This document shows, piece by piece, positions 3,416 to 37,206 of a DNA stretch of 64,000 nt. The stretch covers positions 74 through 64,073 of the forward strand of contig JAGNSU010000002.1 of the NCBI GenBank assembly GCA_017987895.1, given 5' to 3'. The notes below the pieces were generated by a model. The model saw nothing but the letters and a program-made list of their open reading frames with translations, had not been told where the DNA came from and did no database searches. A program made the translations under genes and the position numbers. The DNA comes from Flavobacteriales bacterium (lineage in GTDB: Bacteria > Bacteroidota > Bacteroidia > Flavobacteriales_F > PHOS-HE28). Position 1 is the stretch's first letter, and every line of letters starts with the position of its first letter.

Positions 3416-3462
3416 GGAGGCGCAAAGGAAACAGTTGTCAGTTGTCAGTTGCCGGTTGTCCG

Positions 3463-4407
3463 TCAAAGCCGGGTATCCGACAACTGCGCCTTGCTCAAGA
3501 AGTTCTCCGCCAGCATGCACCGCACGCTGCCACCACCCACGCGCTCAATGGTGGGTACCGCCACCGGCACCAACTGGCCGTGCTTCTCCAGCGCGATACG
3601 TTGATCCGGCCGCAGGGCGGCGAATGCGGTCTCGGAGAGGAAAATGAACATACCCTTGGCGGAACGCAGTTGCAGCATGTTGCCGACGAAGGCGTGCATC
3701 TGCTCCAGCGATATCGGGATGATCTCCTTGTTCGCACGCTCCAACTCGGTGCGCACGTCGTCACGATCCACGGGATAGGGCAGGGCCTCGAAGCAAACCG
3801 CCGCGAACGCCTCACCGATGCTCATCAGCACGTTCGTGTGGTAGACCGGCTGGCCCGTCAGCGTCCCGTCCATCGTGGCCAGGAACGGGACCTGGTGCCC
3901 GAGCAGGGTGCCGCACCAGAGGTTCAATGCGCGTTCCGTGGTGCGTGGTGAGAGGGCCGCGTAAGCCACATTGCGCACTCGATCCAGCACCAGGCTGCCC
4001 GTGCCTTCCAGAAAGCGGTCGTCGTTCTCAAGCACGCTCAGGTCCACCAGGCGCCGCACCTTGAAGCCTTCGCGGACCAAGACCTCATCGAAGGCACGAT
4101 CGCGTTCCGCACGACGGCTCGGCGTACGCATTGGATAGAGCACCACGGTGCCATCGGCGTGGGTGCTGAACCAGTTGTTCGGGAACACCGCGTTCGGTGC
4201 GGCCGGATCCACGGGATCGAGCACCGTGGTGGCGATACCACAGTTCCTCAATGCCATAAGGAGCGCATCGAACTCCTCCTCCGCCTGCTTCCGGATCTCC
4301 GGATCATCGACGAGTTGTTGGAACCCATTGCTCTCCGCTGTCTCCGGATCGAACCCGAAGCCGGTGGGCCGGATGAGGATGACGCCGGATGCGACCTGGC
4401 TGCTCAT
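3463..4407 (-). CDS. amidinotransferase-fold, arginine deiminase-related protein (citrulline-utilisation hydrolase CtlX-like)
   Basis: 314 aa. N-terminus ILIRPTGFGFDPETAESN and C-terminal catalytic-Cys motif GGGSVRCMLAE, typical of the guanidino-group-modifying fold. It sits between argS and an arginase-family gene. Confidence 0.7.
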   Translation of the reverse strand: MSSQVASGVILIRPTGFGFDPETAESNGFQQLVDDPEIRKQAEEEFDALLMALRNCGIATTVLDPVDPAAPNAVFPNNWFSTHADGTVVLYPMRTPSRRAERDRAFDEVLVREGFKVRRLVDLSVLENDDRFLEGTGSLVLDRVRNVAYAALSPRTTERALNLWCGTLLGHQVPFLATMDGTLTGQPVYHTNVLMSIGEAFAAVCFEALPYPVDRDDVRTELERANKEIIPISLEQMHAFVGNMLQLRSAKGMFIFLSETAFAALRPDQRIALEKHGQLVPVAVPTIERVGGGSVRCMLAENFLSKAQLSDTRL

Positions 4408-4452
4408 GAATTTTGAATTAGGAATTCCTAATTCTTGGGCTAGCGTGCGCGC

Positions 4453-5391
4453 TCAGCGGTTCCGAAGAATGGGATAGAGCGGCTCCAACACCCCCAGCAC
4501 CGATTCGGCCATGGCGTTGTTAGTGTCGAGCGCGGGGTTGATCTCGACCACATCGAGGGTCGCGGTCTTGGGATCGGTGCAGAAGCCGGTGAGCAGTTCG
4601 CGCGCTTCGTCCAGGGTGATGCCGTTCGGTACCGGTGTCCCGGTCCCCACGGAGATCGAAGGATCCAAACTGTCCACATCGAAGCTGACGTGGATGCGTT
4701 CACAGGCCGTGAGGTAGGCGAGCGTTTCCCGCACCACGGCGCTGGCGCCTTTGGCGCGCAACTGTTCCACGGTGATCACCTTGATCTTCAGTTCATCGAT
4801 GATGGCCTGCTCTTCGGGCTCGTAGTCGCGCAGGGCGATGAAGACCAGATCGCTAGGCACGAGCTTGGGGCCGTTCACGCCGATCTTCCGCAGGCGGTCC
4901 CATACATCCATGGTGAACACGCGCGGACGATTGCGGCCTTTCTTCTCCAAGTGCATCAGCAGCGCCAGCGGCATGCCGTGTACGTTGCCGCTCGGCGTGG
5001 TCCAGGGCGAATGCAGGTCGGCGTGGGCATCGATCCAGATCACCCCGAGCCGTTCGTTCGGGTAGGCCATCTTGGTGCCTGACACCGAGCCGATGGCAAT
5101 GCTGTGGTCCCCTCCCACCACGATCGGAAAGGTGTTGTTCCGCAGGTAGCGGTACACCTCGTAGGCCAGATCGCTCTCGAAGCGGATCAATCCGTCGATG
5201 TGGTGGGCGCTCGGGGAGCTATCGTCCTCGTAGAGCACGTCGTTCTCGTCCCGGAGGATGCTTTCCTCGGCATGCCCGAACAGTTCGCTGCCCAATTTCC
5301 ACGCCGCCACTCGAAGGGCCGCCATGCCCATGCTGGCTCCGCGCTTGCCCGCCCCGATCTCCGAGGCGGCTTCGATCAATCGTAGTTCCAT
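4453..5391 (-). CDS. arginase-family (ureohydrolase) enzyme, probably arginase
   Basis: Mn-binding motifs GGDHSIAIG, IWIDAHADLH and SFDVDSLDP. Confidence 0.8.
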   Translation of the reverse strand: MELRLIEAASEIGAGKRGASMGMAALRVAAWKLGSELFGHAEESILRDENDVLYEDDSSPSAHHIDGLIRFESDLAYEVYRYLRNNTFPIVVGGDHSIAIGSVSGTKMAYPNERLGVIWIDAHADLHSPWTTPSGNVHGMPLALLMHLEKKGRNRPRVFTMDVWDRLRKIGVNGPKLVPSDLVFIALRDYEPEEQAIIDELKIKVITVEQLRAKGASAVVRETLAYLTACERIHVSFDVDSLDPSISVGTGTPVPNGITLDEARELLTGFCTDPKTATLDVVEINPALDTNNAMAESVLGVLEPLYPILRNR

Positions 5392-5502
5392 AAATACCCT
5401 TCTTACCGGACGGCCAAGGTACGGAGGCCCCTTTCCAAGCTCCGGAACCCTGGGTACGACCTGCCCGTAGGAAGGCCACCTGTCATTGCTTCAGATCGAC
5501 CG

Positions 5503-6210
5503 ATGGACCACAAGGACACCACGACTACCGCTGTGCTGCTTGCCGTTGCCCTTCTGGGCAACGGCTGCGGCCAGGGGCTACTGCAAGAGCATGTGGCCGA
5601 GGGGGTTATAGAGTACGCCCTCACCTTCCCGGACTACGACCCGGACGGGCTGATGGCGGGCATGCTCCCGGAAAAAACCACGCTCACCTTCGGCAGTGGC
5701 ATGCAGATGGCCGAACTGAGCGCCGGCATGGGTGTGTTCCGCACCTCCATCGTCACGGACAACGAGCAGAAGGAAATGGACTACCAGCTCAGCGTGCTGA
5801 GCAAGAAGCTGGTGAGCCACATGGGCCAGCGCGACATCCTGAGCTTCAACAAGGAAAAGCCGGCCGTTACCTTTCTGTACACCGGCGAACTCGACACCAT
5901 CGCCGGCTATCCGTGCAAAAAAGCCGTGGCGCTCTTCGGCAGCATCGACCGCCCCGAGATCGAGGTGTGGTACACCGACCGTATCCGCATCGAAGACCCC
6001 AACTGGTTCAGCCCGTTCCGCGAGATCCCTGGGGTACTGCTGCGGTACGAAATGATCCAGTACGGCATGCGTATGCGCCTGGAAGCCACCACCGTGATAC
6101 CCGGCCCAGTGGAACCCACCAAGTTCGCTTTGAAGGAGGGCTACCAAAAGGTGTCCCCTGATGTGCTCCACGGCGAGCTCGAAGAGGTGCTTTCCTCCTT
6201 CAGTCTCTGA
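5503..6210 (+). CDS. hypothetical lipoprotein (distantly GLPGLI-like)
   Basis: Lipobox-like N-terminus (LLAVALLGNGC). The segment FREIPGVLLRYEM resembles the GLPGLI motif region. No stronger family signal. Confidence 0.5.
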   Translation: MDHKDTTTTAVLLAVALLGNGCGQGLLQEHVAEGVIEYALTFPDYDPDGLMAGMLPEKTTLTFGSGMQMAELSAGMGVFRTSIVTDNEQKEMDYQLSVLSKKLVSHMGQRDILSFNKEKPAVTFLYTGELDTIAGYPCKKAVALFGSIDRPEIEVWYTDRIRIEDPNWFSPFREIPGVLLRYEMIQYGMRMRLEATTVIPGPVEPTKFALKEGYQKVSPDVLHGELEEVLSSFSL

Positions 6211-6273: not shown

Positions 6274-8952
6274 TTGTTGCTGAGCCCCCCCGATACTTTT
6301 ATCGGGTCCGCGCGCCAGCCTGCGCGGGCACCGCATCCATTGGCCAGCGAACGCAAGAACAAGGTCCGCGAAACGGACGAAGTAGAGGAAGCGCCCAAGC
6401 GTTCCCCAAGGCGCAATGCTTCCAAGGAAGCCAGTGAAGGTTTCCTTCCCAAAGTGAAGGCCTTTGTGCGCGACGGCCGCACCCACAAGGTGGTGGGCCT
6501 GATGCTGGTGCTTGGCGCGGGCTATCTGCTGGTGGCGTTCGTCTCCTATCTCTTCACTTGGAAGTTGGACCAGGACCTTACCAACCGATCGTGGGGCGTG
6601 TTACTGAGCCGCGAGGTGCAGGCCGAGAACTGGCTGGGCAAATTGGGCGCACTGCTCTCCCACCGCTTCATCCGCACCTGGTTCGGCATCGCATCGTTCG
6701 CCTTTGTGCTGTGGAGCTTCCTCGGTGGCATGCGCATTCTGCTGGGTACGTGGTTGCTGCCTTTCAAGCGCACCCTTACCTGGACCGCCCTCACGCTGCT
6801 CTGGCTGCCAGCCGCGCTCGGCTTCGTGTTCCGCAGCGGTGATATGGCCTTCCTCGGAGGCGCCGTGGGCTATACGATCAACGGACATCTCACCGGCCTG
6901 ATCGGCAACTTCGGCACCGGGGCCTTGCTCCTCTTCAGCCTCGGCGCGGTGCTGACGGTGGTGTTCGATCCTTCCTTCGAGTGGCTCGGGAAGTTGCTTC
7001 AGAAGAAGGCGCCTGCGGTTGAGGCTGTGGAAGAGGTGGTGGAAGAGCCGGTGGTGAAGTCGAACCGCGCGAAACGCGAAATGGAAGAGGCCGCAGCCGC
7101 TGAAGTGCCGGTCGTTCCCGCTCCTACCCCATCGATGGAGTTGGAGGTGGAGCCTGCTGTGGTGGAGCCGATGATGGATGAGGCATTGCGCGACCCCGGG
7201 TCGGAGCCCGGGGTGAAAGACGACATTGAAGAAGAAACCGAGGAAGAAGAAGTCGGCCTCGAACTTGAAATGGGTGATAGTGCTGTCGAGGAAGTGCTTC
7301 TCGACCCCATCCTCGCGGCTGTGCCTATGTCTGTCGACGGCATGAGCGTGGAGGCGCCCAAGGCGGAGAAAACTTTGAGCGAGGACCAGATCGAGGAGAA
7401 GCTGAAGGAGTTCGGCGAGTACGACCCCACCCTGGACCTGAGCAGCTACGAGCTTCCACCGATCGATCTATTGGTGGACCATGGCACCGGCGAACTGACG
7501 GTGACCAAGGAAGAGCTCGAGGCGAACAAGGACCGCATCGTCGAGACGCTCGGGCACTACAACATCGGCATCGACAAGATCAAAGCGACGATCGGGCCGA
7601 CGGTTACGCTGTACGAGATCATCCCGCAGGCGGGGGTGCGCATCAGCAAGATCAAGAACCTGGAGGACGACATCGCCCTGAGCCTCGCCGCGCTCGGCAT
7701 CCGCATCATCGCGCCGATCCCCGGCAAGGGCACCATCGGTATCGAAGTCCCCAACAGCAAGCCGCAGGTAGTGGGCATGCGCGCGGTGATCGCCAGCGAG
7801 AAGTTCCAGAACAGTACGGCCGATCTGCCCATCGTACTGGGCAAGACGATCACCAACGAGACCTTCGTCACCGACCTCACCAAGATGCCCCACCTGCTGA
7901 TGGCCGGTGCCACGGGCCAGGGCAAGTCGGTGGGCTTGAACGCGATCCTCGTCAGCCTGCTCTATAAGAAGCACCCGAGCCAGATCAAGTTCGTGCTGGT
8001 GGACCCGAAGAAGGTGGAGCTCACCCTCTTCAACAAGATCGAGCGCCACTTCCTGGCCAAGTTGCCCGGCGACAGCGATGCCATCATCACCGATACCAAG
8101 AAGGTGGTGGCCACGCTGAACAGCTTGTGCATCGAGATGGACGAGCGCTACGAGCTGCTGAAGGACGCGCAGGTGCGCAACATCAAGGAGTACAACACCA
8201 AGTTCATCCAGCGTCGCCTGAACCCGGAGAACGGCCACCGCTACCTCCCCTACATCGTGCTGGTGGTGGACGAGTTCGCCGACCTGATCATGACGGCCGG
8301 CCGCGAAGTAGAAACCCCGATCGCCCGCCTCGCCCAGCTCGCGCGCGCCATCGGCATCCACCTGATCATCGCCACGCAGCGCCCGAGCGTGAACATCATT
8401 ACCGGTACCATCAAGGCCAACTTCCCGGCGCGGATCGCCTTCCGGGTCACGAGCAAGATCGATAGCCGCACCATCCTCGATACCGGCGGCGCCGACCAGC
8501 TGATCGGTCGTGGCGACATGCTGCTGAGTACCGGCAACGAGCTTATCCGCATCCAGTGCGCCTTCGTGGATACGCCGGAGGTGGACAAGATCACCGAGTT
8601 CATCGGCAACCAGCGCGGCTATCCCGATGCCCTGCTCCTACCCGAGCCCCCGATGGAGGAAGGCGAAGGGGGAGTGGACCTCGACGATGGCGAGCGCGAC
8701 AGCATGTTCGAGGATGCTGCTCGCCTTGTGGTGCAAACACAGCAAGGCAGCACCTCCCTCATCCAACGCAAGTTGAAGCTGGGCTATAACCGCGCCGGCC
8801 GCATCGTGGACCAACTGGAAGCCGCCGGCATCCTCGGTGGGTTCGAGGGCAGCAAGGCGCGCCGCGTGATGATCCCCAATGAGCAGGCCTTGCATGCGCA
8901 CCTGAACGCGGGTGTGACGGCGGGGGCTGGGCCGGGGATGGGGGGATTCTGA
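6274..8952 (+). CDS. ftsK: DNA translocase FtsK/SpoIIIE
   Basis: N-terminal TM helices, an acidic linker, Walker A GATGQGKS, Walker B VLVVDEFADL, and a gamma winged-helix domain (STSLIQRKLKLGYNRAGRIVDQLE). There is no in-frame ATG upstream of the first TM helix, so the start is probably TTG or GTG and its exact position is uncertain. Confidence 0.95.
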   Translation: MLLSPPDTFIGSARQPARAPHPLASERKNKVRETDEVEEAPKRSPRRNASKEASEGFLPKVKAFVRDGRTHKVVGLMLVLGAGYLLVAFVSYLFTWKLDQDLTNRSWGVLLSREVQAENWLGKLGALLSHRFIRTWFGIASFAFVLWSFLGGMRILLGTWLLPFKRTLTWTALTLLWLPAALGFVFRSGDMAFLGGAVGYTINGHLTGLIGNFGTGALLLFSLGAVLTVVFDPSFEWLGKLLQKKAPAVEAVEEVVEEPVVKSNRAKREMEEAAAAEVPVVPAPTPSMELEVEPAVVEPMMDEALRDPGSEPGVKDDIEEETEEEEVGLELEMGDSAVEEVLLDPILAAVPMSVDGMSVEAPKAEKTLSEDQIEEKLKEFGEYDPTLDLSSYELPPIDLLVDHGTGELTVTKEELEANKDRIVETLGHYNIGIDKIKATIGPTVTLYEIIPQAGVRISKIKNLEDDIALSLAALGIRIIAPIPGKGTIGIEVPNSKPQVVGMRAVIASEKFQNSTADLPIVLGKTITNETFVTDLTKMPHLLMAGATGQGKSVGLNAILVSLLYKKHPSQIKFVLVDPKKVELTLFNKIERHFLAKLPGDSDAIITDTKKVVATLNSLCIEMDERYELLKDAQVRNIKEYNTKFIQRRLNPENGHRYLPYIVLVVDEFADLIMTAGREVETPIARLAQLARAIGIHLIIATQRPSVNIITGTIKANFPARIAFRVTSKIDSRTILDTGGADQLIGRGDMLLSTGNELIRIQCAFVDTPEVDKITEFIGNQRGYPDALLLPEPPMEEGEGGVDLDDGERDSMFEDAARLVVQTQQGSTSLIQRKLKLGYNRAGRIVDQLEAAGILGGFEGSKARRVMIPNEQALHAHLNAGVTAGAGPGMGGF

Positions 8953-11413: not shown

Positions 11414-12979
11414 TCAGGTGGCACTACTTATCCCCATCATATGTGTAAAGCGCCTTGCCCGGAGAAGTTCACAGAACTCCTTGAGGTTCTGGCTTAGTGC
11501 AGCAATCGTAAGTGCGTTACCCTTATCAGACTGATGTACATTGTACTGTGAACCCTCGAACCAACTACGCTTAGCATCATTCGCACTGTTGGCTATAGTA
11601 TTCAGATTTCGGCGAAGCGTGACGAACCTATCGCCAAGGGTAAACTCCGGCTCTGTAGTATTTATTTCTTTTTGGCCATACGCATCTACGCCGTACTTCT
11701 GAAAGAACATCTCCACGGGATTCTTGAGCTTCCTAGAAAGCAACGATGGGATGTAAAACGCACGTGCTACGCTATCCCTATCATCCTCCTGAATCGAACC
11801 GTCCACTTTCGTTAGCTTGTTCAATACCTCAAGCAGTGCGTCAATGCTGCCGAACACTGAGCACAACTGCTTAACGACTTGCATCATTGCAACGTCATCC
11901 GATGTCATTGTAAAGTGTGTCAGGTCCGTCAATCCAAGCTTCCGCATGGAATGATGCAACCCAACATCAACGGGATGATGAATCACAATGAAACAATCGA
12001 ATCCTGAAACCTTCGCTCGCATCAATTGCCTGACGGTCAGCCAACCCTTGTCCGCACATGCAGACAGTAGGATTTGGAGGACTACTTGTGCCGAAGGATT
12101 TGAGACACTTGAAGATGTTCGGCAGTATTCGGTTACAGTGTCAGATATGCTGAACTCGAAATGTTCCTCTGAAAGGAACTTGTCAATGTAGCCCTCAAAA
12201 TCGACCAAAGCACCATAACGATGCTGATATATGAGTCTTATGTTGTTGACGTCGCACACGAGTATGATTTTGTCGAATCCGAACTTATTTTCATCGGAAT
12301 CACTCTCCATATGAGCACTAAATATGTTCATGATTCTGAAGATATGCTCTGGGTCAAGGCGGTCTAAGTCATCCACTACCAGAAGCACGGCCTTGCCAGC
12401 CTCACGCTGCCGAGATATAATCGAGCGTATGTAGTCGGCTACGACACCACTTTCCCAAACAGAACTGGCGGATTGATGCAAGCTTTCGACAAACTCTGTA
12501 GCTCTGACAGCCTCTGGCTGTGATTCCCTTGTGAGCTTCTCCTCGAACTCATTGACATCCTTTACGAGATCCGAAATGGCTTGCATCACTCCACTGACCT
12601 TCTCCGTGAAAGGAATCGCCTTGGACAAGGCGGTTGCGAGATGACTTGAGAATGCTAAGGGGTTGCGGATGATGTACTGAAGCCAGACGTGTTGGATAGG
12701 CATTTTCCGCAACTCTTCTGGGGCGGCAAGACCTAATATGTAGAATTGGAGCAGCACGTCAGCCTTAACGATATTGAAGATGTCGTCATTGCTGCTCACA
12801 CTATAGTTCACCGGGTTTACTCGGACCATTACATACTCATACGACCTTGAACTAAAATACTCGCGGATAAAGGTTGACTTCCCAGTACCAAAAGGTCCAG
12901 ATACGATAGTTCGCTTGATGGCCGGGTTAGAAATGTGCATATCGAACCGCCTCGTAATCGCACCATAAGGTATTTCCAT
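11414..12979 (-). CDS. KAP-family P-loop NTPase
   Basis: Walker A GPFGTGKST, Walker B-like LLVVDDLDRLDPEH, and a large helical remainder. Visibly AT-richer than the neighbours. I chose the ATG giving MEIPYG; the track ORF extends to a TTG at 13024. Confidence 0.8.
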   Translation of the reverse strand: MEIPYGAITRRFDMHISNPAIKRTIVSGPFGTGKSTFIREYFSSRSYEYVMVRVNPVNYSVSSNDDIFNIVKADVLLQFYILGLAAPEELRKMPIQHVWLQYIIRNPLAFSSHLATALSKAIPFTEKVSGVMQAISDLVKDVNEFEEKLTRESQPEAVRATEFVESLHQSASSVWESGVVADYIRSIISRQREAGKAVLLVVDDLDRLDPEHIFRIMNIFSAHMESDSDENKFGFDKIILVCDVNNIRLIYQHRYGALVDFEGYIDKFLSEEHFEFSISDTVTEYCRTSSSVSNPSAQVVLQILLSACADKGWLTVRQLMRAKVSGFDCFIVIHHPVDVGLHHSMRKLGLTDLTHFTMTSDDVAMMQVVKQLCSVFGSIDALLEVLNKLTKVDGSIQEDDRDSVARAFYIPSLLSRKLKNPVEMFFQKYGVDAYGQKEINTTEPEFTLGDRFVTLRRNLNTIANSANDAKRSWFEGSQYNVHQSDKGNALTIAALSQNLKEFCELLRARRFTHMMGISSAT

Positions 12980-13182
12980 TGCAGCTGGTATAACTAGTGT
13001 GTCGAGAACAACCTGATGGAGCAAGTTAGTCTAGAGGGTGTAGCGCAAATGATGACTTGAGTGAACCCGACCGAAAAGTTGGGCGGCACGCCTCGCCGAC
13101 GCCGGGACGGCTATGGCGGAGCGCGTCAGGGCTTCGGCGGCCAAAGGAGCCCGTTGGTGGAACGCAGCCACGATCTTCAAGC

Positions 13183-14421: not shown

Positions 14422-14708
14422 GGTGTGATGTGGATAGGTGCCACGAGACTACTGACTTGAAGCTGCCCCCACAATACCGAGTTTCCGGGGGGTGGCACCC
14501 GTGTCCCTGCTATTTGGTCCACCATGCCCTGCCCCAGCGTCACCCCGATCTGGCGCAAGACTTCCGCGTGCGAAGACGGGTGTTGGGCAGGGCGCCTACA
14601 TCGCCTTCGCGTAGCCGCTTCGGCGGAGCAAGGCGCCAAAGCGCTTTGGCGACGGCGCGCGGGCGTATTGTGCCGCGTTCCTTGGATCTGTGGGCAAGGG
14701 CCAATGCA

Positions 14709-14740
14709 GCCACAAGCCACTGGCCTCAAGCCACAAGCTT
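14709..14740. repeat. Intergenic repeat gccacaagccactggcctcaagccacaagctt (copy 1)
   Basis: Identical 32-mer at 14945..14976. Degenerate relatives lie near 9741..9772 and 21046..21068. Confidence 0.85.
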
Positions 14741-14899: not shown

Positions 14900-14944
14900 T
14901 TGGGCGAGCTCAGCCTTGAGCCACGAGTTGCGAGCGGTATGCCA

Positions 14945-14976
14945 GCCACAAGCCACTGGCCTCAAGCCACAAGCTT
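14945..14976. repeat. Intergenic repeat gccacaagccactggcctcaagccacaagctt (copy 2)
   Basis: Identical to 14709..14740. The next ~45 nt are also similar (..ggagagc[t/c]tacacgg..). Confidence 0.85.
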
Positions 14977-15018
14977 GATGGGTGCTTCGCGAAATGGAGA
15001 GCCTACACGGTTCCATGG

Positions 15019-15312
15019 GAGATCCCGGATAGCCGCTGCCCGGTGCTGAATGCGGAGCCTGGTTTTCAAAATGCGGCTTGGAAACCACCCCTACCCCTCC
15101 TTATGTACTCGGGGCGAGGGATCGCCCCTCAGGAGGGGAGTTGAACGTTGAGGAGATCCCGGATAGCCGGGGCCCGGTGCTGAATGCGGAGCCTGGTTTT
15201 CAAAATGCGGCTTGGAAACCACCCCTACCGCTCCTTTGTACTCGGGGCGAGGGATCGCCCCTGAGGAGGGGAGTTGAACGTTGAGGAGATCCCGGATAGC
15301 CGGGGCCCTGAT
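15019..15312. repeat. Tandem repeat with a 133-134 bp unit, about 2.2 copies
   Basis: The unit start gagatcccggatagcc recurs at 15019, 15153 and 15286. The units are near-identical by eye and each contains the hairpin ggggcga-ggga-tcgcccc. Confidence 0.85.
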
Positions 15313-15350
15313 GCTGCGCATCACCCGGCTTCCGGGATGACGACGTGGTT

Positions 15351-15413: not shown

Positions 15414-18400
15414 CTACCCTCTTGCCCTTACGGTGGCAGACATGAGCATGACGTTGTAGGGATTCCACACGGACATGGCGAAGTACATGGTGGTGGAGCC
15501 CTCGTGGTTCGGGGTGGTGAAGCGCTCGATGAGGTAGGGGGCGTAGACCCCACCGCCTTTATCCTCACGGCACGGGTCACTTAGACCATCGGGCTTGTTC
15601 TCTTCGTGGATGAACTGTCCGAACGCCGTACGCATATCCAGAATGTTCTCGGGACCGGACCATGGCCCCCAGGGATGCGGACTTTGGTGTTCCAGCACCA
15701 CGTACGGATTGTCCCCATTGTAGAGCATCACGAACCGGCTGATGAAGGGATTCCAGCGCACGCCGAACTCGCCTACCGAGCCGGAGAGGAAGAGCGGCCT
15801 GGCGGATGCCTCGTCGCGGCCCCACAGCGGCCTGGACGAGGCATCGGATCCTGCGAAGTAGCGAATGGCCGAACGATCCTCGAGCCGGTTCAAGGGGACG
15901 TGAGCCAGGTAGATGTTGCTGCGCCGATAGCCGCCACTACCGAAGATGAGGATGCCCTCGCCATCCACTTCTGGTAGACCAGGATGATCGAAGTTCCTTA
16001 AGCGTTGGAGCGAGACGTTGATGAATTTCTCACGCGAGAGCTCATAGAGCGATGTGCCGAAGTTCAAGCCATTGTCCTCCGACCGCGCTAGCACGCTGCG
16101 GTGCATGGAAACAAAGTCATCGGCGCTATCGCTAGCGATGCGGCCCGTGGTGAAGAAGACGAACATGCTGCTGCCGTTGGTGACCTGCTGGGCGAAACTC
16201 CATGGCAAGGCCACGTTCGCATTGTCATGAAAGAAATGTTGGAGCCGGCCGCCCACCGGAACGACCACTTCGAAATTGCCGTGACCACTGCCAAAGTCAG
16301 ACTGGATGATGCAGCCCGCATCCGTGATGCCCCTGGCGACGGTGTGGCCTCGTTGCCACCGGCCGGCCAGGTTGGCATTGTCATGGAAGTAGTGTGCGAG
16401 TTGGTCCCCCTCGGGCACAACGACCTCGAAGTTGCCATGGTCACCGCCTTTGAAATCGGACTGCATGATGCAACCGGGGCCGCTAGCATGATCGGTGATG
16501 ACGCGGCCGCGTTGCCATTGGGTATGGCCGCTGTAATTATCCAGGAAGTAGTGTACCAATTGGTTGCCCTCCAGAACAACCACTTCGAAATTGCCGTGTT
16601 CGCTGCCGAAGTCGGACTGGATGATGCACCCCGGGCCCGTGGCGCGATCGGTGATGACGCCGGCGCGTTGCCACTGTGCGGGGCTGCCGGAATTGTCGCG
16701 GAAGTAGTGGACCAGTTCATTCCCCTCCAGGACGACCACTTCGAAATTGCGGTGGTCGCTGCCGAAGTCGGACTGGATGATGCAACCCGGGCCGGTGGCC
16801 TGCGCGGTGATAATGCCGGCGCGTTGCCATGTTGCCGGACCGCCGGAGTTGACGAGGAAGTAGTGGACCAGGTTATGGCCCTCCAGCACCACCACTTCGA
16901 AATTGCCGTGGCCGCTGCCGAAGTCGGACTGCATGATGCACCCTGGACCGGTGGCTTGGGTGCTGATGGTCTGCGCGCATTGCCATGGCGTGCGGACATC
17001 GGTGTTATCATGCCACCAATGGTTCAGCCGTTGCCCTTGCAGGACCACTACTTCAAAATTCCGGTGGATGAGGCCGTAGGTGCTACGGATGATCCAGCCA
17101 GGACCGCTTTCCTTTCGTTCGAAGCTGATGCCATCGGTGGGTACGCAGAAGGCATTCTGCACAATGTCGTCCACCTTGGGAGCGCTGGGATTGAACTTCA
17201 GTTCGATATCCTTCAAGACCACCGTATCGGAACAGAAGGCGATGCTGTCGCGTGCGAGACCGTCATCGGTACGGATGACACCATCCACGTTCGTATCCCC
17301 GAAAAGGAAGGCGAGCCGGCCATCGTGCTCGAACGCTTGACCGAGGTCCGTGCCTGTGACGCCGTAGCGGCTGTGCGTGCGACTGCGTGTAGGTTGTTTC
17401 AGCTGGCGGTCTTCCTCCCCGGTGAGTTGAGCGATCTTCTTGGTGTCACATATATGCGGCGACTCCTTGTATGGTTCAGCGAACCTTTCGCGTAGGACGG
17501 AGGATCGCCACCACGGCGTATCGCCACTGGTGTTGTGGTGAACGTAGTGAACGACCGAACGCGTGACCTCCGCCGCCAAGACCTCGTAGTTAGCACGCTC
17601 GCCAAGCAGCAACGGGCCATTGGCCCCCCGGGTGCCGCGCGCGATGCATCCCGGACCGCCAGAGGCAACGCTGACCACCTGGCCCCGCTTCCACGTGCGC
17701 ACCGGTGCTGAGTTGTCGAGGAAATAGTGCACGAGTTCATTCTCTTCCAACACGACTACCTCGAAGTTCTTGTGTCCGCTACCGAAGTAGCCCTGGATGA
17801 TGGAGCCTGCGCCGCTTGCCAGATCGGTGACCACCCCGACGCGCTGCCATTGCGCCGGGCCGCCGGCATTGTCCAAGAAGTAGTGTACGAGGTCCCTTCC
17901 CTCCAGCACGACCACTTCGAAGTTGCCGTGCTGGCTGCCAAAGTCGGACTGAATGATACAACCAGGCCCTGTGGCGCGCCCTGTGATGACCCCCACGCGT
18001 TGCCACTGAGAAGCACCGCCGTAGTTGTCCAGGAAGTAGTGGACCAGTAGATTTCCCTCTGGCACCACCACTTCGAAGTTGCCGTGGTTGCTGCCGAAAT
18101 CGGACTGGATGATGCAGCCCGGACCAGTGGCTTTTGTGCTGATGACCTGTGCGCGTTGCCATGGTGCGTTGCCGCTGTGGTTGTCCAGGAAGTAGTGCAC
18201 GAGTTCATTCCCTTCCAACGCGACCACCTCGAAGTTGCCGTGGTTGCTGCCAAAGTCGGACTGGATGAGGCCCCCCGGGCCGGTCGCTTTTGTGGTGATG
18301 GGCTTAACCTCTATCCACTTTCTCCCCTCACTCCCCCCTCTAGCTTCCGAGTAATAGTGCCACAAGGTGCCGTTGCTGAAGAGGACCGCTTCCAAGTGGT

Positions 18401-18455
18401 TGGGTGTACCGAAATCACTGCTGATGAGGCATCCAGGGCCGACGAGATCCGACAT
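15414..18455 (-). CDS. 1013-aa repeat protein with 6 propeller-blade repeats, a DUF4185-like N-half, 6 more blade repeats, then a DUF4185-like C-half
   Basis: Twelve ~52-aa repeats with consensus TGPGCIIQSDFGSxHGNFEVVVLEGNxLVHYFLDNxGxxxxWQRAGVIT. The flanking parts carry DUF4185-type motifs (GVTGTDLGQAFEHDGRLAFLFGDT; YRRSNIYLAHVP; WNPFISRFVMLYNG; VYAPYLIERF; MSVWNPYNVMLMS). No signal peptide or T9SS CTD is visible. Confidence 0.85.
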   Translation of the reverse strand: MSDLVGPGCLISSDFGTPNHLEAVLFSNGTLWHYYSEARGGSEGRKWIEVKPITTKATGPGGLIQSDFGSNHGNFEVVALEGNELVHYFLDNHSGNAPWQRAQVISTKATGPGCIIQSDFGSNHGNFEVVVPEGNLLVHYFLDNYGGASQWQRVGVITGRATGPGCIIQSDFGSQHGNFEVVVLEGRDLVHYFLDNAGGPAQWQRVGVVTDLASGAGSIIQGYFGSGHKNFEVVVLEENELVHYFLDNSAPVRTWKRGQVVSVASGGPGCIARGTRGANGPLLLGERANYEVLAAEVTRSVVHYVHHNTSGDTPWWRSSVLRERFAEPYKESPHICDTKKIAQLTGEEDRQLKQPTRSRTHSRYGVTGTDLGQAFEHDGRLAFLFGDTNVDGVIRTDDGLARDSIAFCSDTVVLKDIELKFNPSAPKVDDIVQNAFCVPTDGISFERKESGPGWIIRSTYGLIHRNFEVVVLQGQRLNHWWHDNTDVRTPWQCAQTISTQATGPGCIMQSDFGSGHGNFEVVVLEGHNLVHYFLVNSGGPATWQRAGIITAQATGPGCIIQSDFGSDHRNFEVVVLEGNELVHYFRDNSGSPAQWQRAGVITDRATGPGCIIQSDFGSEHGNFEVVVLEGNQLVHYFLDNYSGHTQWQRGRVITDHASGPGCIMQSDFKGGDHGNFEVVVPEGDQLAHYFHDNANLAGRWQRGHTVARGITDAGCIIQSDFGSGHGNFEVVVPVGGRLQHFFHDNANVALPWSFAQQVTNGSSMFVFFTTGRIASDSADDFVSMHRSVLARSEDNGLNFGTSLYELSREKFINVSLQRLRNFDHPGLPEVDGEGILIFGSGGYRRSNIYLAHVPLNRLEDRSAIRYFAGSDASSRPLWGRDEASARPLFLSGSVGEFGVRWNPFISRFVMLYNGDNPYVVLEHQSPHPWGPWSGPENILDMRTAFGQFIHEENKPDGLSDPCREDKGGGVYAPYLIERFTTPNHEGSTTMYFAMSVWNPYNVMLMSATVRARG

Positions 18456-18998: not shown

Positions 18999-19079
18999 GG
19001 CAGCGAGCAACGGACGGTTGGTGCTGTGACTATGGTCGTTGGGACTAGGTGGACACGGAGCCGAGGAGGATGGGTACGT

Positions 19080-19107
19080 GGTGAGTGGTGAGTGGTGAGT
19101 GGTGAGT
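19080..19107. repeat. Heptanucleotide microsatellite (GGTGAGT)x4
   Basis: ggtgagtggtgagtggtgagtggtgagt, between the HTH gene stop and the Zn-ribbon gene start. Confidence 0.85.
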
Positions 19108-19133
19108 GGAATGCCAGCCTGGAGCTGCTGACT

Positions 19134-19520
19134 TCAGGCTTCAAGCTGGCCGCCGGCTTCGGGCTTGGGTGGGGAAAGGCGGGCGGTGAGTTCTTCGGTG
19201 AGGGATTGAAGGCGGTCCAAGGGAAGTTTCTCGATGATGGTGGCGATGGGTAGTGGCGGGGTCTCCTGGCGAACAAGGATGGTGAGGGTGTCTTCCGCTG
19301 GCGGTGGTGCACCGGGACCTGGTGTATAGCTGAGCATATCGTGGACGGTACACTTAAGCAAATGGCAGAGACGCTCGATGTGGCCGCACTTGAGCGTGCT
19401 GAATTTGCCGTGGAGGATACGATTGGAGGTATGGTGGCTGAAGCCTTTCTTACGCAACCAGGCGAAGGGTTCGGTGATGCCGCGCATTTTGATGATGCGG
19501 GCCGGATCGAAGGATAGCAT
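19134..19520 (-). CDS. XRE-like helix-turn-helix protein with a Pro-rich C-terminal tail
   Basis: Starts at the ATG giving MLSFDPARIIKMRGITEPFAWLRKKGFSHHTSNRILHGKFSTLKCGHIERLCHLLKCTVHDMLSY. This pattern is common in short Bacteroidota HTH regulators. The longer track ORF (to 19757) has no support upstream. Confidence 0.7.
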   Translation of the reverse strand: MLSFDPARIIKMRGITEPFAWLRKKGFSHHTSNRILHGKFSTLKCGHIERLCHLLKCTVHDMLSYTPGPGAPPPAEDTLTILVRQETPPLPIATIIEKLPLDRLQSLTEELTARLSPPKPEAGGQLEA

Positions 19521-19739
19521 GGTATGTTGGTATTGGTTATGGGGCGGAAGTAATCCGGAAATCAAATGCGCGGCCCCGTGAAAAATATCGGGGTCTTTCC
19601 ACCAAGGGGTGTGAACAACGGCGGAGGGCGCGGTGGTGTTGGGCCCGCATGGACCGTGTTGTGACGGAACGTGCGGTTTGACCCCGGTGGACGATGCCAG
19701 GATCCGGAGTTCTGCACAGTTACCTGAAATGAACGATAG

Positions 19740-20012
19740 GTTGCCTTGATAGGACATTCAGTTCCTTTGTCTATCGTCCTTGTTCCTTTGATAGGTCGCT
19801 CTGTCCTCCTGACCGGTTGATCTGTTCCGTTGAACAGCGTAATCGTGACCATGTTCGGTGAAACTATTCCCTTGAACGGTCCCTATATTCCCTCAAACAG
19901 CGCCTCTGTGATTCTAATTGGCGTTCCAGTTCCATTGGTCGGTGGCTCTGTTCCCCTATCAGCTGTTTGTGTACCCATGATAAGCGTCTCTGTTCCCTTG
20001 AACAAAGCATTG
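19740..20012. repeat. 13 consecutive, exactly phased 21-bp direct repeats (iteron-like array)
   Basis: The core GTTCCnTTG begins at 19740, 19761, 19782, 19803, 19824, 19845, 19866, 19887, 19908, 19929, 19950, 19971 and 19992. Approximate unit consensus is GTTCCnTTGAnnnGnGnnTCT. No single ORF spans the array. Confidence 0.9.
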
Positions 20013-20080
20013 TGGGAACGCTACGGTACCTGTAACCGGACGCATATTCCCTCTTTCGATCAATACCCATCGACAGGGAT

Positions 20081-20177
20081 ACACCTAGTTACCATTATTA
20101 TACATTATGATTCGGCATTCATTATACCATATAGTATACATATTGGTAGATGTTAATTCACATTATTTACTCATTTA
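20081..20177. other. Strongly AT-rich ~100-bp tract with CATTAT-type words
   Basis: accattattatacattatgattcggcattcattataccatatagtatacatattggtagatgttaattcacattatttactcatttattg. This stands out against a high-G+C background and directly follows the 21-bp array. Confidence 0.6.
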
Positions 20178-20234
20178 TTGAAACACATACATGGCAATAT
20201 CAGTAAGAACGGAAAATCAACAACTTCAAAGACC

Positions 20235-20912
20235 ATGACAGACCCACAAGAAAACAGAATGAGCATGTTCCTGAGCACCCAACTGGTGCTGCAGGAAAAC
20301 CAGGGGAAGTGGAGCGGGATACCTGCCTTTGTGCAGGCGAACGCCGACTTCGACGCAGGCATTACCGCATTGCGAGCCGCTACCACCACGCAGATCAAGG
20401 ACCTGCGCGGTTACACCGTAGACAAGCAGAATTCCCAGGAGAGGATGTGGAGCTTGACCATGAAGGTGAGCGGCGGCGTGATGGCCTGGGCGGAGGTGGA
20501 AGGGAACCAGGGCTTGGCACAGGAGATGAACGTGGTGCAGAGCGAGTTCGCTATTTACCGCGACGCTGTTCTGGCGGAGCGCTGCACCGGGGTGCATGAC
20601 GTGGCTCTGGCGAACCTGGCCAACCTTGTGGACTATGGCGTGACCGCAGCGGACACGACAGCGCTGAAGGCGGCCATTGACGCATACATCGCCCTGCTGG
20701 CCCTGCCGCGGATGCTGGTGAACGTGCGCAAGAGCGTGACGAGCGAGATCGGGTTGCTGATCCGCGACAATATGCGCCTGCTGAGCCGCCGGATGGATCG
20801 CTTGATGCGGAGGTTCGAGCTGAGCGACCCGGCGTTCTTCCGGACGTATATGAACGCGCGGATCATCATTGACCAAGGCTCTGGAAAGGCGCCGGTGGTA
20901 GTCGCGGCGTGA
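20235..20912 (+). CDS. hypothetical protein (Ala/Leu-rich, probably helical)
   Basis: First ATG of ORF 20178..20912 (MTDPQENRMSMF...). It is followed by a terminator-like hairpin. No family recognised. Confidence 0.6.
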   Translation: MTDPQENRMSMFLSTQLVLQENQGKWSGIPAFVQANADFDAGITALRAATTTQIKDLRGYTVDKQNSQERMWSLTMKVSGGVMAWAEVEGNQGLAQEMNVVQSEFAIYRDAVLAERCTGVHDVALANLANLVDYGVTAADTTALKAAIDAYIALLALPRMLVNVRKSVTSEIGLLIRDNMRLLSRRMDRLMRRFELSDPAFFRTYMNARIIIDQGSGKAPVVVAA

Positions 20913-20927
20913 GCGACAACACTTGAT

Positions 20928-20967
20928 GCGAAGGGCCCTGGGGTTGACCTGGGGCTTTCGCTTTTTT
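20928..20967 (+). terminator. Rho-independent terminator candidate
   Basis: gcgaagggccctggggttgacctggggctttcgc followed by tttttt. Confidence 0.6.
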
Positions 20968-21122
20968 GAACCAGCTACAAGCCTCTAGCTACTAGCCTCT
21001 AGCTAGTAGCCTCAAGCTTTGAACGCGGGCATGCGACAAGCTGCCTCTGGCTGCAAGCCACAAGCTTGATAACCCGGGCTTGCTCCCCTCCGTAAAACAC
21101 GGCCGACAACGCATGAACCGCC

Positions 21123-21800
21123 ATGATCCGCTCCAACATGACCCCTGCGCAGGTGGCTTCGGCCGCTCGCAGGGACGTGGGGCAAGTGCTGCGGCATGCG
21201 GCGGAGAGGCACAGTGACCTGGAGCGCCTCTGCACCAAACTGGGCAAGGGCGAACAGGTGGCAAAGAGCGGGTGCTTCACTTCACAGAAAGGGTTGCAAT
21301 GGGTGTACGTGGCGGCCGCGAGCCAGGGCCGCGTGCGGATCTACCCCCTCGTTTGGTGGGCGACCACAACGGGCACCTGCGCCATGCAGATCGACGCCGA
21401 GGGGCCTGCGGCCTTCTTCCAGGAACATGTGATGGACCGCTATATCAAACGTTACCTGCGCGGAAGCACGCTGTTCAACGCTTTGCGTGAGTTCCACCGG
21501 CGCAACTTCGACAAGGCGAGCCAGCCATGCGATTACAAAGGCGACCGCGAGAACTACACGGCGGTGATCGACCATGGCTACGTGGCCGGGGAATACCAGA
21601 AGGACGATGCGATAGTCCACTACCGCACCTTTTATGAGTTGGCGCGTGGCGAGAAGCGCTTCGGACACTTGCGCCCGGCCCAGAACTGGCGTCAGCTAAT
21701 GGCCACGATCGACTTTGAACGTGTTGCCCGCCGCGACACGCCACATTTCGCCTGGGGGCGCGGGTACTTGATGCGGGCGGAGATGGGGATGGCGGCGTAG
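21123..21800 (+). CDS. hypothetical protein
   Basis: 225-aa ORF with an ATG start. No recognisable motifs. Confidence 0.5.
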   Translation: MIRSNMTPAQVASAARRDVGQVLRHAAERHSDLERLCTKLGKGEQVAKSGCFTSQKGLQWVYVAAASQGRVRIYPLVWWATTTGTCAMQIDAEGPAAFFQEHVMDRYIKRYLRGSTLFNALREFHRRNFDKASQPCDYKGDRENYTAVIDHGYVAGEYQKDDAIVHYRTFYELARGEKRFGHLRPAQNWRQLMATIDFERVARRDTPHFAWGRGYLMRAEMGMAA

Positions 21801-37085: not shown

Positions 37086-37206
37086 TCTTCCCGTTGTCGG
37101 TTGACAGTGGACAGTTGTTGGTCGGTACTGACAACTGTCAACCGACAACCGACCACTCCCCGCCCCGAATGATTTTCTTTGCGCCCCCGATCAAGAACGG
37201 TGTCAG

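Follow-up and report, generated by a model that had tools for sequence, protein, structure and literature searches.

The iterons of plasmid origins are bound co-operatively by one protein, and in the γ origin of R6K seven 22-bp iterons are accompanied by an AT-rich segment. In partition and plasmid-control systems repeat arrays act both as an operator and as a platform for filament assembly, and the repeat evolves fast together with its binder; examples are parC of R1 (10 × 11 bp), sopC of F (12 × 43 bp) and the 7-bp heptad arrays of omega of pSM19035. In type III toxin–antitoxin (TA) systems the repeats are 31–62 nt long, occur in 1.9–5.6 near-identical copies, fold into pseudoknots and precede a terminator, and the toxin gene encodes a ToxN-like endoribonuclease of about 150–170 aa (PMC3401426). 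TIGR-Tas systems, which are found mainly in phages and CPR bacteria, combine a Nop-domain Tas protein with ~36-nt units in which box C/D motifs flank two spacers (bioRxiv 10.64898/2026.09.09.750476; PMC12045711).

The locus described here lies within a window of 64,000 nucleotides, the whole stretch of DNA that was analysed, and has something in common with each of these systems. It comprises a degenerate, non-coding array of 14 units (19719..20012, no strand assigned), a spacer with an AT-rich putative promoter region (20013..20234, + strand) and P225a, an orphan gene for an all-α-helical protein of 225 aa (20235..20912, + strand). Like iterons, the array consists of direct repeats set head to tail, each about two helical turns long, with an AT-rich segment beside them. 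However, it is accompanied by no Rep gene, replicon or DnaA boxes, has 14–20 units rather than 3–9, is chromosomal in several phyla upstream of one orphan family, and its AT-rich tract, a putative promoter region, is missing in other lineages. As in partition and control arrays, many phased direct repeats stand upstream of or beside a gene, and one of the homologous loci (these are numbered with the prefix L; here L045) even has a 7-nt sub-period (lag 7), but no ParA/ParM/TubZ NTPase, RHH or ParB protein is encoded nearby, the array is not plasmid-borne, its period of 21 is fixed across phyla and its partner is a neutral-to-acidic helical bundle. The position of the array directly upstream of a single gene, its lineage-specific repeat and the small, self-contained and often chromosomal nature of the unit recall the type III TA systems ToxIN, CptIN and TenpIN; in contrast to these, there are 9–20 degenerate copies of 21 nt, the window shows neither a fold signal nor a terminator, and the partner is an all-helical protein. 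Arrays of fixed period and low conservation that are missed by standard repeat finders and lie beside the gene of a helical protein are also the mark of TIGR-Tas, whereas here the period is 21, P225a has no Nop match or PDB fold match (E<0.1) and the arrays share no box C/D pattern.

The window array was detected by lag autocorrelation and a position weight matrix. The original prediction had placed the core GTTCCnTTG at 13 positions with an exact 21-bp spacing. The register is indeed exact, with 13 consecutive 21-bp spacings in a position weight matrix built on the units, and phasing at two helical turns is as strict as had been proposed. The 13 units were also borne out and one more degenerate unit was found upstream, giving 14; the core itself, however, is free of mismatches in only 5 of these 13 units (at 19761, 19782, 19824, 19929 and 19992), with 1–5 mismatches in the other listed units, such as GTGACCATG at 19845 and GTGATTCTA at 19908. 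Read on the + strand, the consensus is GTTCCCTTGATCGGnGnnTCT, of which GTTCC.TTGA is the best-kept stretch. Over 252-bp segments the match fraction reaches 0.49 at lag 21 and 0.52 at lag 63, the top values of all 64 kb when every lag from 4 to 63 is compared, and all 30 block-shuffles remained at or below 0.425. The lag peaks are confined to 21, 42 and 63, and signal is absent at lags 3, 7, 10 and 11. This array in exact register is real. Its units are only ~50% alike and it is therefore not called by Tandem Repeats Finder, the check originally proposed, which autocorrelation and the weight matrix replaced. Taken alone, the window array shows no significant excess of mismatches outside the core (p=0.45).

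The array is non-coding, and every frame is closed across it. As had been predicted, the frame that would read V-P-L is broken by a TGA at 19818, and the ORFs 19562..19852 (−) and 19830..20156 (+) are present; the source assembly has no gene call across the array. Gene callers tend to lengthen or invent ORFs through such arrays, as seen for a 207-aa ORF in the window (19134..19757) and a 245-aa call in L042.

P225a was named in the original prediction only as one of several possible partners. Its AF2 model is all-helical (pLDDT 77). An intrinsic-terminator-like hairpin with a T-run lies just past its stop codon (20932..20968, + strand), which indicates that P225a is a one-gene transcription unit, and strong terminators likewise follow its homologs in L018 and L019. 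The family is large, with 5,962 clusters at 50% identity (E<=1e-3), and some members carry a C-terminal CarboxypepD_reg domain. P225a found no match in Pfam, NCBIfam, PHROG or PADLOC, Foldseek searches of PDB and BFVD returned nothing at E<0.1, and a profile search of PDB sequences returned nothing. No recognisable DNA-binding fold was seen in the AF2 model or by Foldseek, and the protein is neutral to acidic in most lineages (pI 4.6–6.8). A tblastn search gave 0 matches in 72,556 plasmids and 50,697 phages, and nothing was found in the IMG/VR viral collection.

Arrays with a period of 21, 42, 63 or 84 are present 50–600 bp upstream of the gene at about 25 of 33 loci with a P225a homolog, and the array-bearing loci belong to Bacteroidota, Ignavibacteria, Verrucomicrobia and Acidobacteriota. 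At 19 of the first 26 loci such an array, 325–600 bp upstream of the gene start, is the strongest periodic segment of the locus. The distance from the end of the array to the ATG is 222 bp in the window and 50–300 bp in relatives, and there are 9–20 units per array across lineages; the homolog loci L013, L016, L026, L038 and L046 have no array. The array thus belongs to a two-part module with P225a, and this association spans phyla. P225a is the sole constant partner gene of the array in all of them, and no other conserved neighbour was found across the loci. Of the candidates proposed at the outset, the orphan at 20235 proved to be universal, the HTH gene accompanies the array only in its own clade, and neither the Zn-ribbon gene nor the orphan at 21123 is conserved with the array. 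The HTH gene (19134..19520, − strand, 128 aa; Pfam HTH_26, E=1.2e-7) encodes a Cro/C1-type protein and is divergently transcribed. In L012/L029, L032/L033 and L042, homologs with 41–49% identity occupy the same divergent position upstream of the array. This synteny is limited to the window's own Bacteroidota clade; HTH_26 is absent from the module in other phyla, and a search for its relatives returned only the query.

Within this arrangement the period does not vary, whereas the sequence turns over. The repeat is common to close relatives and differs between phyla, and no motif common to the phyla was found when matrices were compared in all rotations and on both strands. Among close relatives a 14-nt core, GTTCCCTTGATCGG, occurs in both the window array and the array of L042, whose protein is 73% identical, and the intergenic DNA around the core does not align between the two. 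An array of GATC/Dam sites, as in L042, was considered and dropped, as the window does not keep those sites. L018 carries two 21-bp arrays; no significant common motif was found in them, and the idea of a common regulon was therefore dropped. Several arrays show half-unit secondary peaks with a 10+11 or 9+12 split. Apart from these and the lag of 7 in L045, sub-periods of 7 bp or 10.5 bp are absent. A search of the literature on 21-bp or 21-nt tandem repeats found nothing relevant.

Four Chitinophagaceae genomes allowed orthologous arrays to be aligned unit by unit. Identity within the arrays is 0.71–0.90, compared with 0.32–0.41 in the flanks and 0.64–0.85 at third codon positions. The more a register position is conserved within an array, the less it is substituted between genomes (Spearman rho −0.76, p=7e-5), and motif positions in these orthologous arrays are under purifying selection. 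Column conservation is non-uniform in several arrays (p=0.001–0.05). The indels between the Chitinophagaceae arrays are exactly 21 and 84 nt; unequal crossing-over in any tandem repeat also yields indels in multiples of the unit.

The AT-rich tract downstream of the array was confirmed, with a GC content of 0.26–0.35 at 20050–20250 against 0.60 for the whole window. An AT-rich block at ~20080–20200 is conserved in relatives: ATTATTTAyTG..TTAATTGAAAC is common to the window, L012 and L030, and L042 has [TG]TGAAAC. Promoters of ECF sigma factors have the consensus GAAC/AAC at −35 and CGT at −10, 16–17 nt apart. In the window a −35-like GAAAC (20180–20184) is followed after 16 nt by CAGTA (20201–20205), where relatives have CGT[AT]. 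The pattern G[ACT]AAC-N15–18-CGT[ATC] is present at 10 of 28 loci, with 0.26 expected, and the window is one base off. By its motif the window promoter looks like a stress-induced one of the ECF-sigma type. In Chitinophagaceae a TAnnTTTG −7 box lies at the 3′ edge of the array, so that putative promoter motifs are placed between array and gene in two Bacteroidota clades. The original prediction had taken the AT-rich tract for an unwinding region. Because its conserved block contains a GAAAC-N16/17-CGT motif of ECF type, the tract appears better explained as the promoter region of P225a. No terminator or inverted repeat was found in the window at 20013–20234. Array units were also considered as minus-strand ECF promoters (GGAAC), a candidate that was dropped on account of the wrong distance to any CGT.

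Because the pairing of array and gene recurs in at least four bacterial phyla, the array is probably not an origin of replication but a conserved regulatory element of DNA that has not been described before. As the best single reading we tentatively propose a helically phased, putative protein-binding array that controls the promoter of P225a; the fallback offered in the original prediction, a regulatory nucleoprotein site, thus stays the best of its readings. What is expected of a phased operator is found here: a 21-bp register, promoter motifs downstream of the array and motif positions under purifying selection. The array would consist of consecutive sites, each recognised by its sequence and set two helical turns (21 bp) from the next, and would lie immediately upstream of the putative P225a core promoter and, in this clade, between that promoter and the divergent HTH_26 gene. 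A protein may occupy the units cooperatively from one side of the helix, and the resulting extended nucleoprotein tract could either silence or activate the adjacent promoter. The half-unit peaks of 10+11 and 9+12 would be as expected of half-sites one helical turn apart. For the binder, the HTH_26 protein is the leading candidate in the window's clade. Since P225a is the only constant partner across phyla, its autoregulation is possible, as is binding by an unlinked, lineage-specific factor. Counting against a DNA-binding model are the mostly neutral to acidic P225a, the restriction of HTH_26 to one clade and the absence of an array from some homolog loci.

It is also conceivable, if unlikely, that the array acts as RNA, either as a repeat RNA or as a long leader, with 21-nt units that bind P225a in the manner of a type III TA system, a protein sponge or an RNP filament, perhaps as a small mobile or defence module. 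The layout of an array directly upstream of a single gene, with a repeat that co-varies with the protein lineage, is that of type III TA systems (PMC3401426). The module is self-contained and its neighbours vary even among related Chitinophagaceae. They are often restriction–modification (R-M) or defence genes, such as an Eco57I-type gene, N6_N4_Mtase with RE_BsaWI, and a Z1/DUF4420/HATPase cluster. In L018 terminator-like hairpins lie between array and gene. In L028 only ~50 nt separate the array from the ATG and a search for a sigma-70 promoter found none, so this array could be transcribed. The arrays of L019 and L028 fold better than shuffled sequences (z=−4.3 and −2.5). The Chitinophagaceae arrays are strongly depleted of G on the sense strand (G 0.09–0.14), which fits RNA better than duplex DNA; strand composition is, however, inconsistent across lineages. 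Against an RNA, the window array gives no fold signal on either strand (z=−0.9 and −0.8), the window has no terminator between array and gene, and in two clades the putative promoter motifs lie between the two. The units are also much more degenerate, shorter (21 nt) and more numerous (9–20) than those of ToxI, CptI and TenpI, and the all-helical P225a has no ToxN-like or PADLOC match. A search of Rfam with the window and 7 loci gave nothing at the gathering score and only chance-level matches (E>4); with neither an Rfam match nor a fold signal, a structured RNA was rejected for the window.

A broader proposal, which we offer as speculation, is that array and P225a form a new kind of self-contained two-part module. 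P225a would be an elongated helical bundle whose polymers occupy the phased repeats upstream of its own gene, or their transcript, with a fixed footprint. The module would be an autoregulated nucleoprotein filament or a type III TA-like RNA–protein pair, and would travel as one piece among the variable, defence-rich islands in the chromosomes of Bacteroidota, Verrucomicrobia, Acidobacteriota and Ignavibacteria.

Less probable still is an array with no sequence-specific partner. It could be a tandem repeat in an intergenic place that tolerates it, maintained there by unequal crossing-over, or purely structural DNA (curvature, spacing, supercoil-sensitive) for which a two-turn period is all that is needed. 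Either would account for conservation of the period without conservation of the sequence. Satellite-like dynamics typically produce higher-order periods such as the 42, 63 and 84 seen here, and the mismatches of the window array show an even distribution across the 21 positions (p=0.45). Curvature was predicted as end-to-end ratios in a wedge model. It is strong in L017, L019, L014 and L034 but absent in the window, L012, L032, L022 and L021; intrinsic curvature was accordingly rejected as a common property of the arrays, being ordinary in the window, L012, L032 and L022. Purifying selection on motif positions between orthologous arrays, the non-uniform columns of several arrays and the retention of GTTCCCTTGATCGG in the window and L042 amid non-aligning intergenic DNA all speak against a partnerless repeat, and a neutral repeat would not turn up again and again in front of the same gene family in four phyla.

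The headline of the original prediction, an iteron-type plasmid or ICE origin that includes an AT-rich unwinding element, or alternatively a partition centromere, is now very improbable and largely refuted. The 14 contiguous direct repeats stand beside an AT-rich tract and a small HTH gene, and with 14 × 21 bp they form a cluster of direct repeats of ~17–22 bp such as characterises an oriV. However, FtsK (6274–8952) and genes with T9SS C-terminal sorting domains place the window on a chromosome, and in other phyla the module adjoins the housekeeping genes EF-G, uvrC and tsf as well as R-M genes, with P225a alone conserved. The prediction had noted that no Rep, ParB or integrase gene is nearby, and none was found among the neighbouring proteins with Pfam, NCBIfam and PHROGs; the HMM check it proposed for Rep and ParB gave no match, and no ParA or relaxase was found. 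Neighbours with a ParA/ParM/TubZ NTPase or centromere-binding domain are likewise lacking, which argues against a partition site. There is no DnaA box (<=1 mismatch) in 19.5–20.3 kb and no GC-skew inflection at the array. P225a is without a match in the plasmid, phage and IMG/VR collections, the AT-rich tract contains a conserved putative promoter motif, and other lineages lack an AT-rich tract altogether, their array running up to the start codon.

Equally hard to credit is a coding array, present or recent, that is, a heptad-repeat (7-aa) protein or a pseudogene: seven codons make 21 bp, one or two frames are open as heptads in the GC-rich relatives L018, L028, L014 and L034 and gene callers run ORFs through the array (245 aa in L042), but a repeated stop-free 21-mer gives an open frame by chance, the heptad peptides of separate lineages are unrelated, the source assembly has no gene there, and the stops in all six frames of the window and at least 8 relatives (among them L017, L022–L025, L032 and L036), together with a lag 3 at background in every array, largely refute it.

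In practical terms, standard repeat finders overlook these arrays and gene callers mis-annotate ORFs through them. If the phased regulatory element proposed here is correct, a fixed period combined with a fully turned-over sequence would provide a rare natural series for the co-evolution of a repeat-reading protein and its sites. A very large uncharacterised family, of ~6,000 clusters in several environmental phyla, would gain a recognisable cis-signature and, with it, a handle on its function and regulation, including a likely stress-type promoter of the ECF-sigma class in Bacteroidota.

Setting out the region in steps of 21 bp bore out the 21-bp register from 19740, although the claimed count of 13 units was one short: a weight matrix built from the array's own units gave thirteen consecutive 21-bp spacings, that is 14 units spanning 19719 to 20012. 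The recurring GTTCCnTTG core is present but had been overstated, as it is exact in only five units, and the units are about 50% alike. In 252-bp windows, lags 21 and 63 give match fractions of 0.49 and 0.52, which are unsurpassed in the 64 kb across all lags between 4 and 63, and all 30 block-shuffles fell below the array's values (shuffle maximum 0.425). Within the array only lags 21, 42 and 63 exceed the background of 0.2-0.3, with no rise at lags 3, 7, 10 or 11. Tandem Repeats Finder, proposed as a check, misses the window's array, and this array, taken alone, has no significant excess of mismatches outside the core (p=0.45).

The 713-bp intergenic region that holds the array separates two divergent genes and is 99.8-100% identical in other samples. 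The minus-strand gene (19134-19520) encodes a 128-aa HTH_26 protein (Pfam E=1.2e-7), and the plus-strand gene (20235-20912) a 225-aa orphan, P225a, whose start codon was set by alignment with homologs. Since an intrinsic-terminator-like hairpin (20932-20958) and a T-run follow 3' of P225a, the gene appears to be transcribed on its own.

Together, the array and the P225a homolog make up a conserved two-part module. Homologs were gathered from the protein database and from genome and metagenome contigs, and their loci (designated by L numbers) were scanned for periodicity at all lags between 4 and 63. For 19 of the first 26 loci, the highest periodicity anywhere in the locus came from a window at lag 21, 42 or 63, positioned 325-600 bp upstream of the homolog's start. 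The cleaner arrays were confirmed by Tandem Repeats Finder, namely those of L019 (Acidobacteriota; 14.5 copies of GTCGTTCAATGAACACTTCAA), L028 (Verrucomicrobia; 450-807, period 21/42) and L032 (period 21/42). With the later additions L042, L043, L044 and L045 (period 21) and L037 and L015 (period 84), about 25 of 33 loci are array-positive, and all periods are multiples of 21. The loci come from Bacteroidota (Flavobacteriales and Chitinophagaceae), Ignavibacteria, Verrucomicrobia and Acidobacteriota. Some homolog loci have no array; L013 carries two tandem P225a paralogs (4001-4678 and 5001-5681), and in the L038-L041 lineage the upstream position is filled by an ORF of 105-113 aa whose C-terminus is hydrophobic and TM-like (L038 2187-2528). 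L018 contains a second 21-bp array (672-827; 6.7 copies of CCGGTGAGCGCGTTTCTCGAC, with a higher order of 84), 3.3 kb from its P225a module, between an EF-G gene and an apparently divergent membrane-protein gene; a motif shared with the main L018 array was considered and rejected, as the similarity is not significant. Because of this second array, 21-bp arrays are not strictly confined to P225a genes.

Besides the P225a homolog, no gene is conserved beside the arrays. The HTH gene adjoins the array only in the window's own clade (L012/L029, L032/L033 and L042; 41-49% identity), and neither the Zn-ribbon protein nor the second 225-aa orphan (21123-21800), both proposed as partners, is conserved with it. 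Elsewhere the module neighbours EF-G, uvrC, tsf, an NADH-dehydrogenase subunit, R-M systems or a Z1/DUF4420 cluster. Genes of R-M or defence type often adjoin P225a modules (the flanks of L044, L045, L046 and L023), examples being N6_N4_Mtase with RE_BsaWI, HATPase_c_3/Z1/DUF4420/MTaX1 and an Eco57I-type enzyme; in the window, 11414-13024 encodes a KAP P-loop NTPase with a PADLOC PDC-S20 match. An association with defence genes is not established, because other modules adjoin housekeeping genes.

For four Chitinophagaceae genomes (L022-L025) the alignment holds at the level of single units, starts at a sharp left boundary and continues across the array into the gene. Between-genome identity is 0.71-0.90 for the array plus leader, 0.64-0.85 for the gene's third codon positions and 0.32-0.41 for the flanks; as both flanks differ, array and gene travel together. 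The sole indels are of exactly 21 and 84 nt. The positions most conserved within the array are also those least substituted between genomes (Spearman rho -0.76, p=7e-5), which argues that the units are constrained putative recognition sites and not decaying copies. Column conservation is significantly non-uniform in several arrays, and in several, secondary matrix peaks split the unit 10+11 or 9+12, as half-sites spaced by a single helical turn would.

Between lineages the period stays the same while the repeat sequence changes. The information content of the unit consensus sequences is 10-17 bits, and comparing the matrices over all rotations and both strands revealed no cross-phylum core. 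Close relatives, by contrast, have cores in common. In L042, whose P225a homolog is 73% identical to the window's, the array carries eleven copies of GTTCCCTTGATCGGATGGGTG; this 14-nt core matches six window units at up to 3 mismatches and forms no other clusters in the window or L042 sequence, and the intergenic DNA around the two arrays does not align. At 75% matches, the L042 array exceeds all others seen in the clade in homogeneity, despite its P225a homolog being split into 65-aa and 154-aa ORFs (7790-8465) by a frameshift or a sequencing or assembly indel. The 21-mer of L045 (4716-4946; TTTCACT TTTACAG CTTACCC) shows an evident sub-period of 7 nt (lag 7, 0.44; lag 14, 0.40) found in no other array, a hint that some of the 21-bp units may have arisen from three heptamers. 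Near-perfect short tandem repeats of 7 bp, in 4-5 copies (GTGGTGA x4.6, ACTGACA x4.4), also recur at intergenic spots of the window (3432-3460, 14708-14738, 14944-14974, 19078-19109, 20973-21018 and 37127-37157), several near ORF ends and one directly 3' of the P225a terminator; 7-bp or 14-bp arrays flank the modules of L032, L037, L038 and L042 and occur elsewhere in L019 and L028, and such repeats may be a genome-wide feature of these bacteria. A 134-bp direct repeat (15018-15316; 2.2 copies, 95% identical) is found immediately 3' of a DUF4185 protein gene (15414-18455, minus strand; 1,013 aa) that contains many 156-bp (52-aa) coding repeats.

The P225a family is very large, with 5,962 clusters (50% identity) at E<=1e-3 and 4,048 at E<=1e-10. 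P225a matches nothing in Pfam, NCBIfam, PHROG or PADLOC; searching PDB sequences with a profile was likewise negative, and plasmid, phage and IMG/VR collections yielded no homologs. The AF2 model (pLDDT 77) contains only helices, one of them 59 residues long, and Foldseek returned nothing at E<0.1 in PDB or BFVD. Many members add a C-terminal CarboxypepD_reg Ig-like domain. In most, the pI is neutral to acidic (4.6-6.8) and the C-terminal third is basic, a charge profile that does not make the family an obvious nucleic-acid binder.

The AT-rich tract downstream of the array was confirmed (GC 0.26-0.35 at 20050-20250), but its reading as an unwinding tract gives way to a predicted promoter region, since the stretch before the ATG holds a block conserved among the window's relatives and a near-ECF motif. 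ECF-sigma promoters are marked by a -35 'AAC' element separated by 16-17 nt from a -10 'CGT' element. In the 130 bp nearest the start codon, G[ACT]AAC-N15-18-CGT[ATC] occurs in 10 of 28 loci against 0.26 predicted by shuffles; all ten are Bacteroidota relatives of the window, with most matches at -47 to -64. The window itself is one base off this motif (GAAAC at 20180-20184, 16 nt, CAGTA). In Chitinophagaceae a TAnnTTTG box, which we take to be the Bacteroidota -7 element, lies at the array's 3' edge, about 55 nt before the ATG. As these motifs sit between array and ATG, the array is upstream of a candidate core promoter in both clades.

We tentatively favour a helically phased array of sequence-specific DNA sites, adjoining a stress-type promoter on its upstream side and probably read co-operatively by a protein; in the window's clade the array would lie between two divergent promoters. 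The best candidate binder in that clade is the HTH_26 protein. P225a, the only partner common to all phyla, is also a candidate, and an unlinked factor is possible.

A role at the RNA level, comparable to the repeat RNAs of type III toxin-antitoxin systems, seems unlikely, if the strongest competitor. It would suit a self-contained, relocating module with frequent R-M and defence neighbours, the G-depleted sense strand of Chitinophagaceae arrays and the hairpins in L018. The L028 array reaches to about 50 nt from the ATG with no promoter recognised there, and so may be transcribed. The L019 and L028 arrays fold better than shuffles (z=-4.3 and z=-2.5); the units of both are palindromic in part, as a dyad-symmetric DNA site would equally be. 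For the window's array neither strand folds better than its shuffles (z=-0.9 and -0.8), and searches of Rfam with the window and seven loci gave no match at gathering score and chance-level matches at relaxed thresholds. Moreover, the arrays fail the defining tests of type III systems in repeat length and number, terminator and toxin fold. A purely structural or neutral repeat is still less probable, as selection acts on motif positions and predicted curvature is inconsistent.

The iteron-type origin of the original prediction, or a centromere, is very improbable. Its observation that no Rep, ParB or integrase gene is nearby holds, leaving no initiator or partition gene, and the context is chromosomal, with FtsK (6274-8952), several T9SS C-terminal sorting domain genes and a beta-lactamase-family protein. 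There is no DnaA box within 19.5-20.3 kb and no GC-skew inflection at the array; the module recurs by housekeeping genes in several phyla, and several lineages lack an AT-rich tract, their arrays abutting the start codon. A coding heptad repeat is rejected as just as improbable, in keeping with the earlier view that the array is not a gene: the TGA at 19818 and two spurious ORFs were confirmed, all six frames contain stops across the arrays of the window, L017, L022-L025, L032 and L036, lag-3 periodicity is absent from every array, and the heptad 'peptides' from open frames in GC-rich relatives are mutually unrelated. ORF finders and gene callers do extend ORFs across arrays, stretching the HTH ORF to 207 aa in the window (19134-19757, minus strand), calling its L042 homolog as 245 aa (6762-7499, minus strand) with an N-terminal 'IKGT' heptad artefact, and placing a 227-aa ORF over the L018 array (3296-3979, plus strand).

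In form the array resembles contiguous iterons and the operator or centromere arrays of plasmid control systems; its likeness to type III toxin-antitoxin repeats (31-62 nt in 2-6 copies; PMC3401426) and to TIGR arrays (36-nt units with box C/D motifs; bioRxiv 10.64898/2026.09.09.750476; PMC12045711) is superficial. It falls outside all of these families, as the defining protein of each is absent and the repeat geometry differs, and a full-text literature search for 21-bp or 21-nt tandem repeats found nothing comparable. A self-assembling DNA/RNA-protein module, which would be categorically new, is a doubtful prospect. We provisionally place the array among phased protein-binding repeat arrays, here tied to an uncharacterised protein family.
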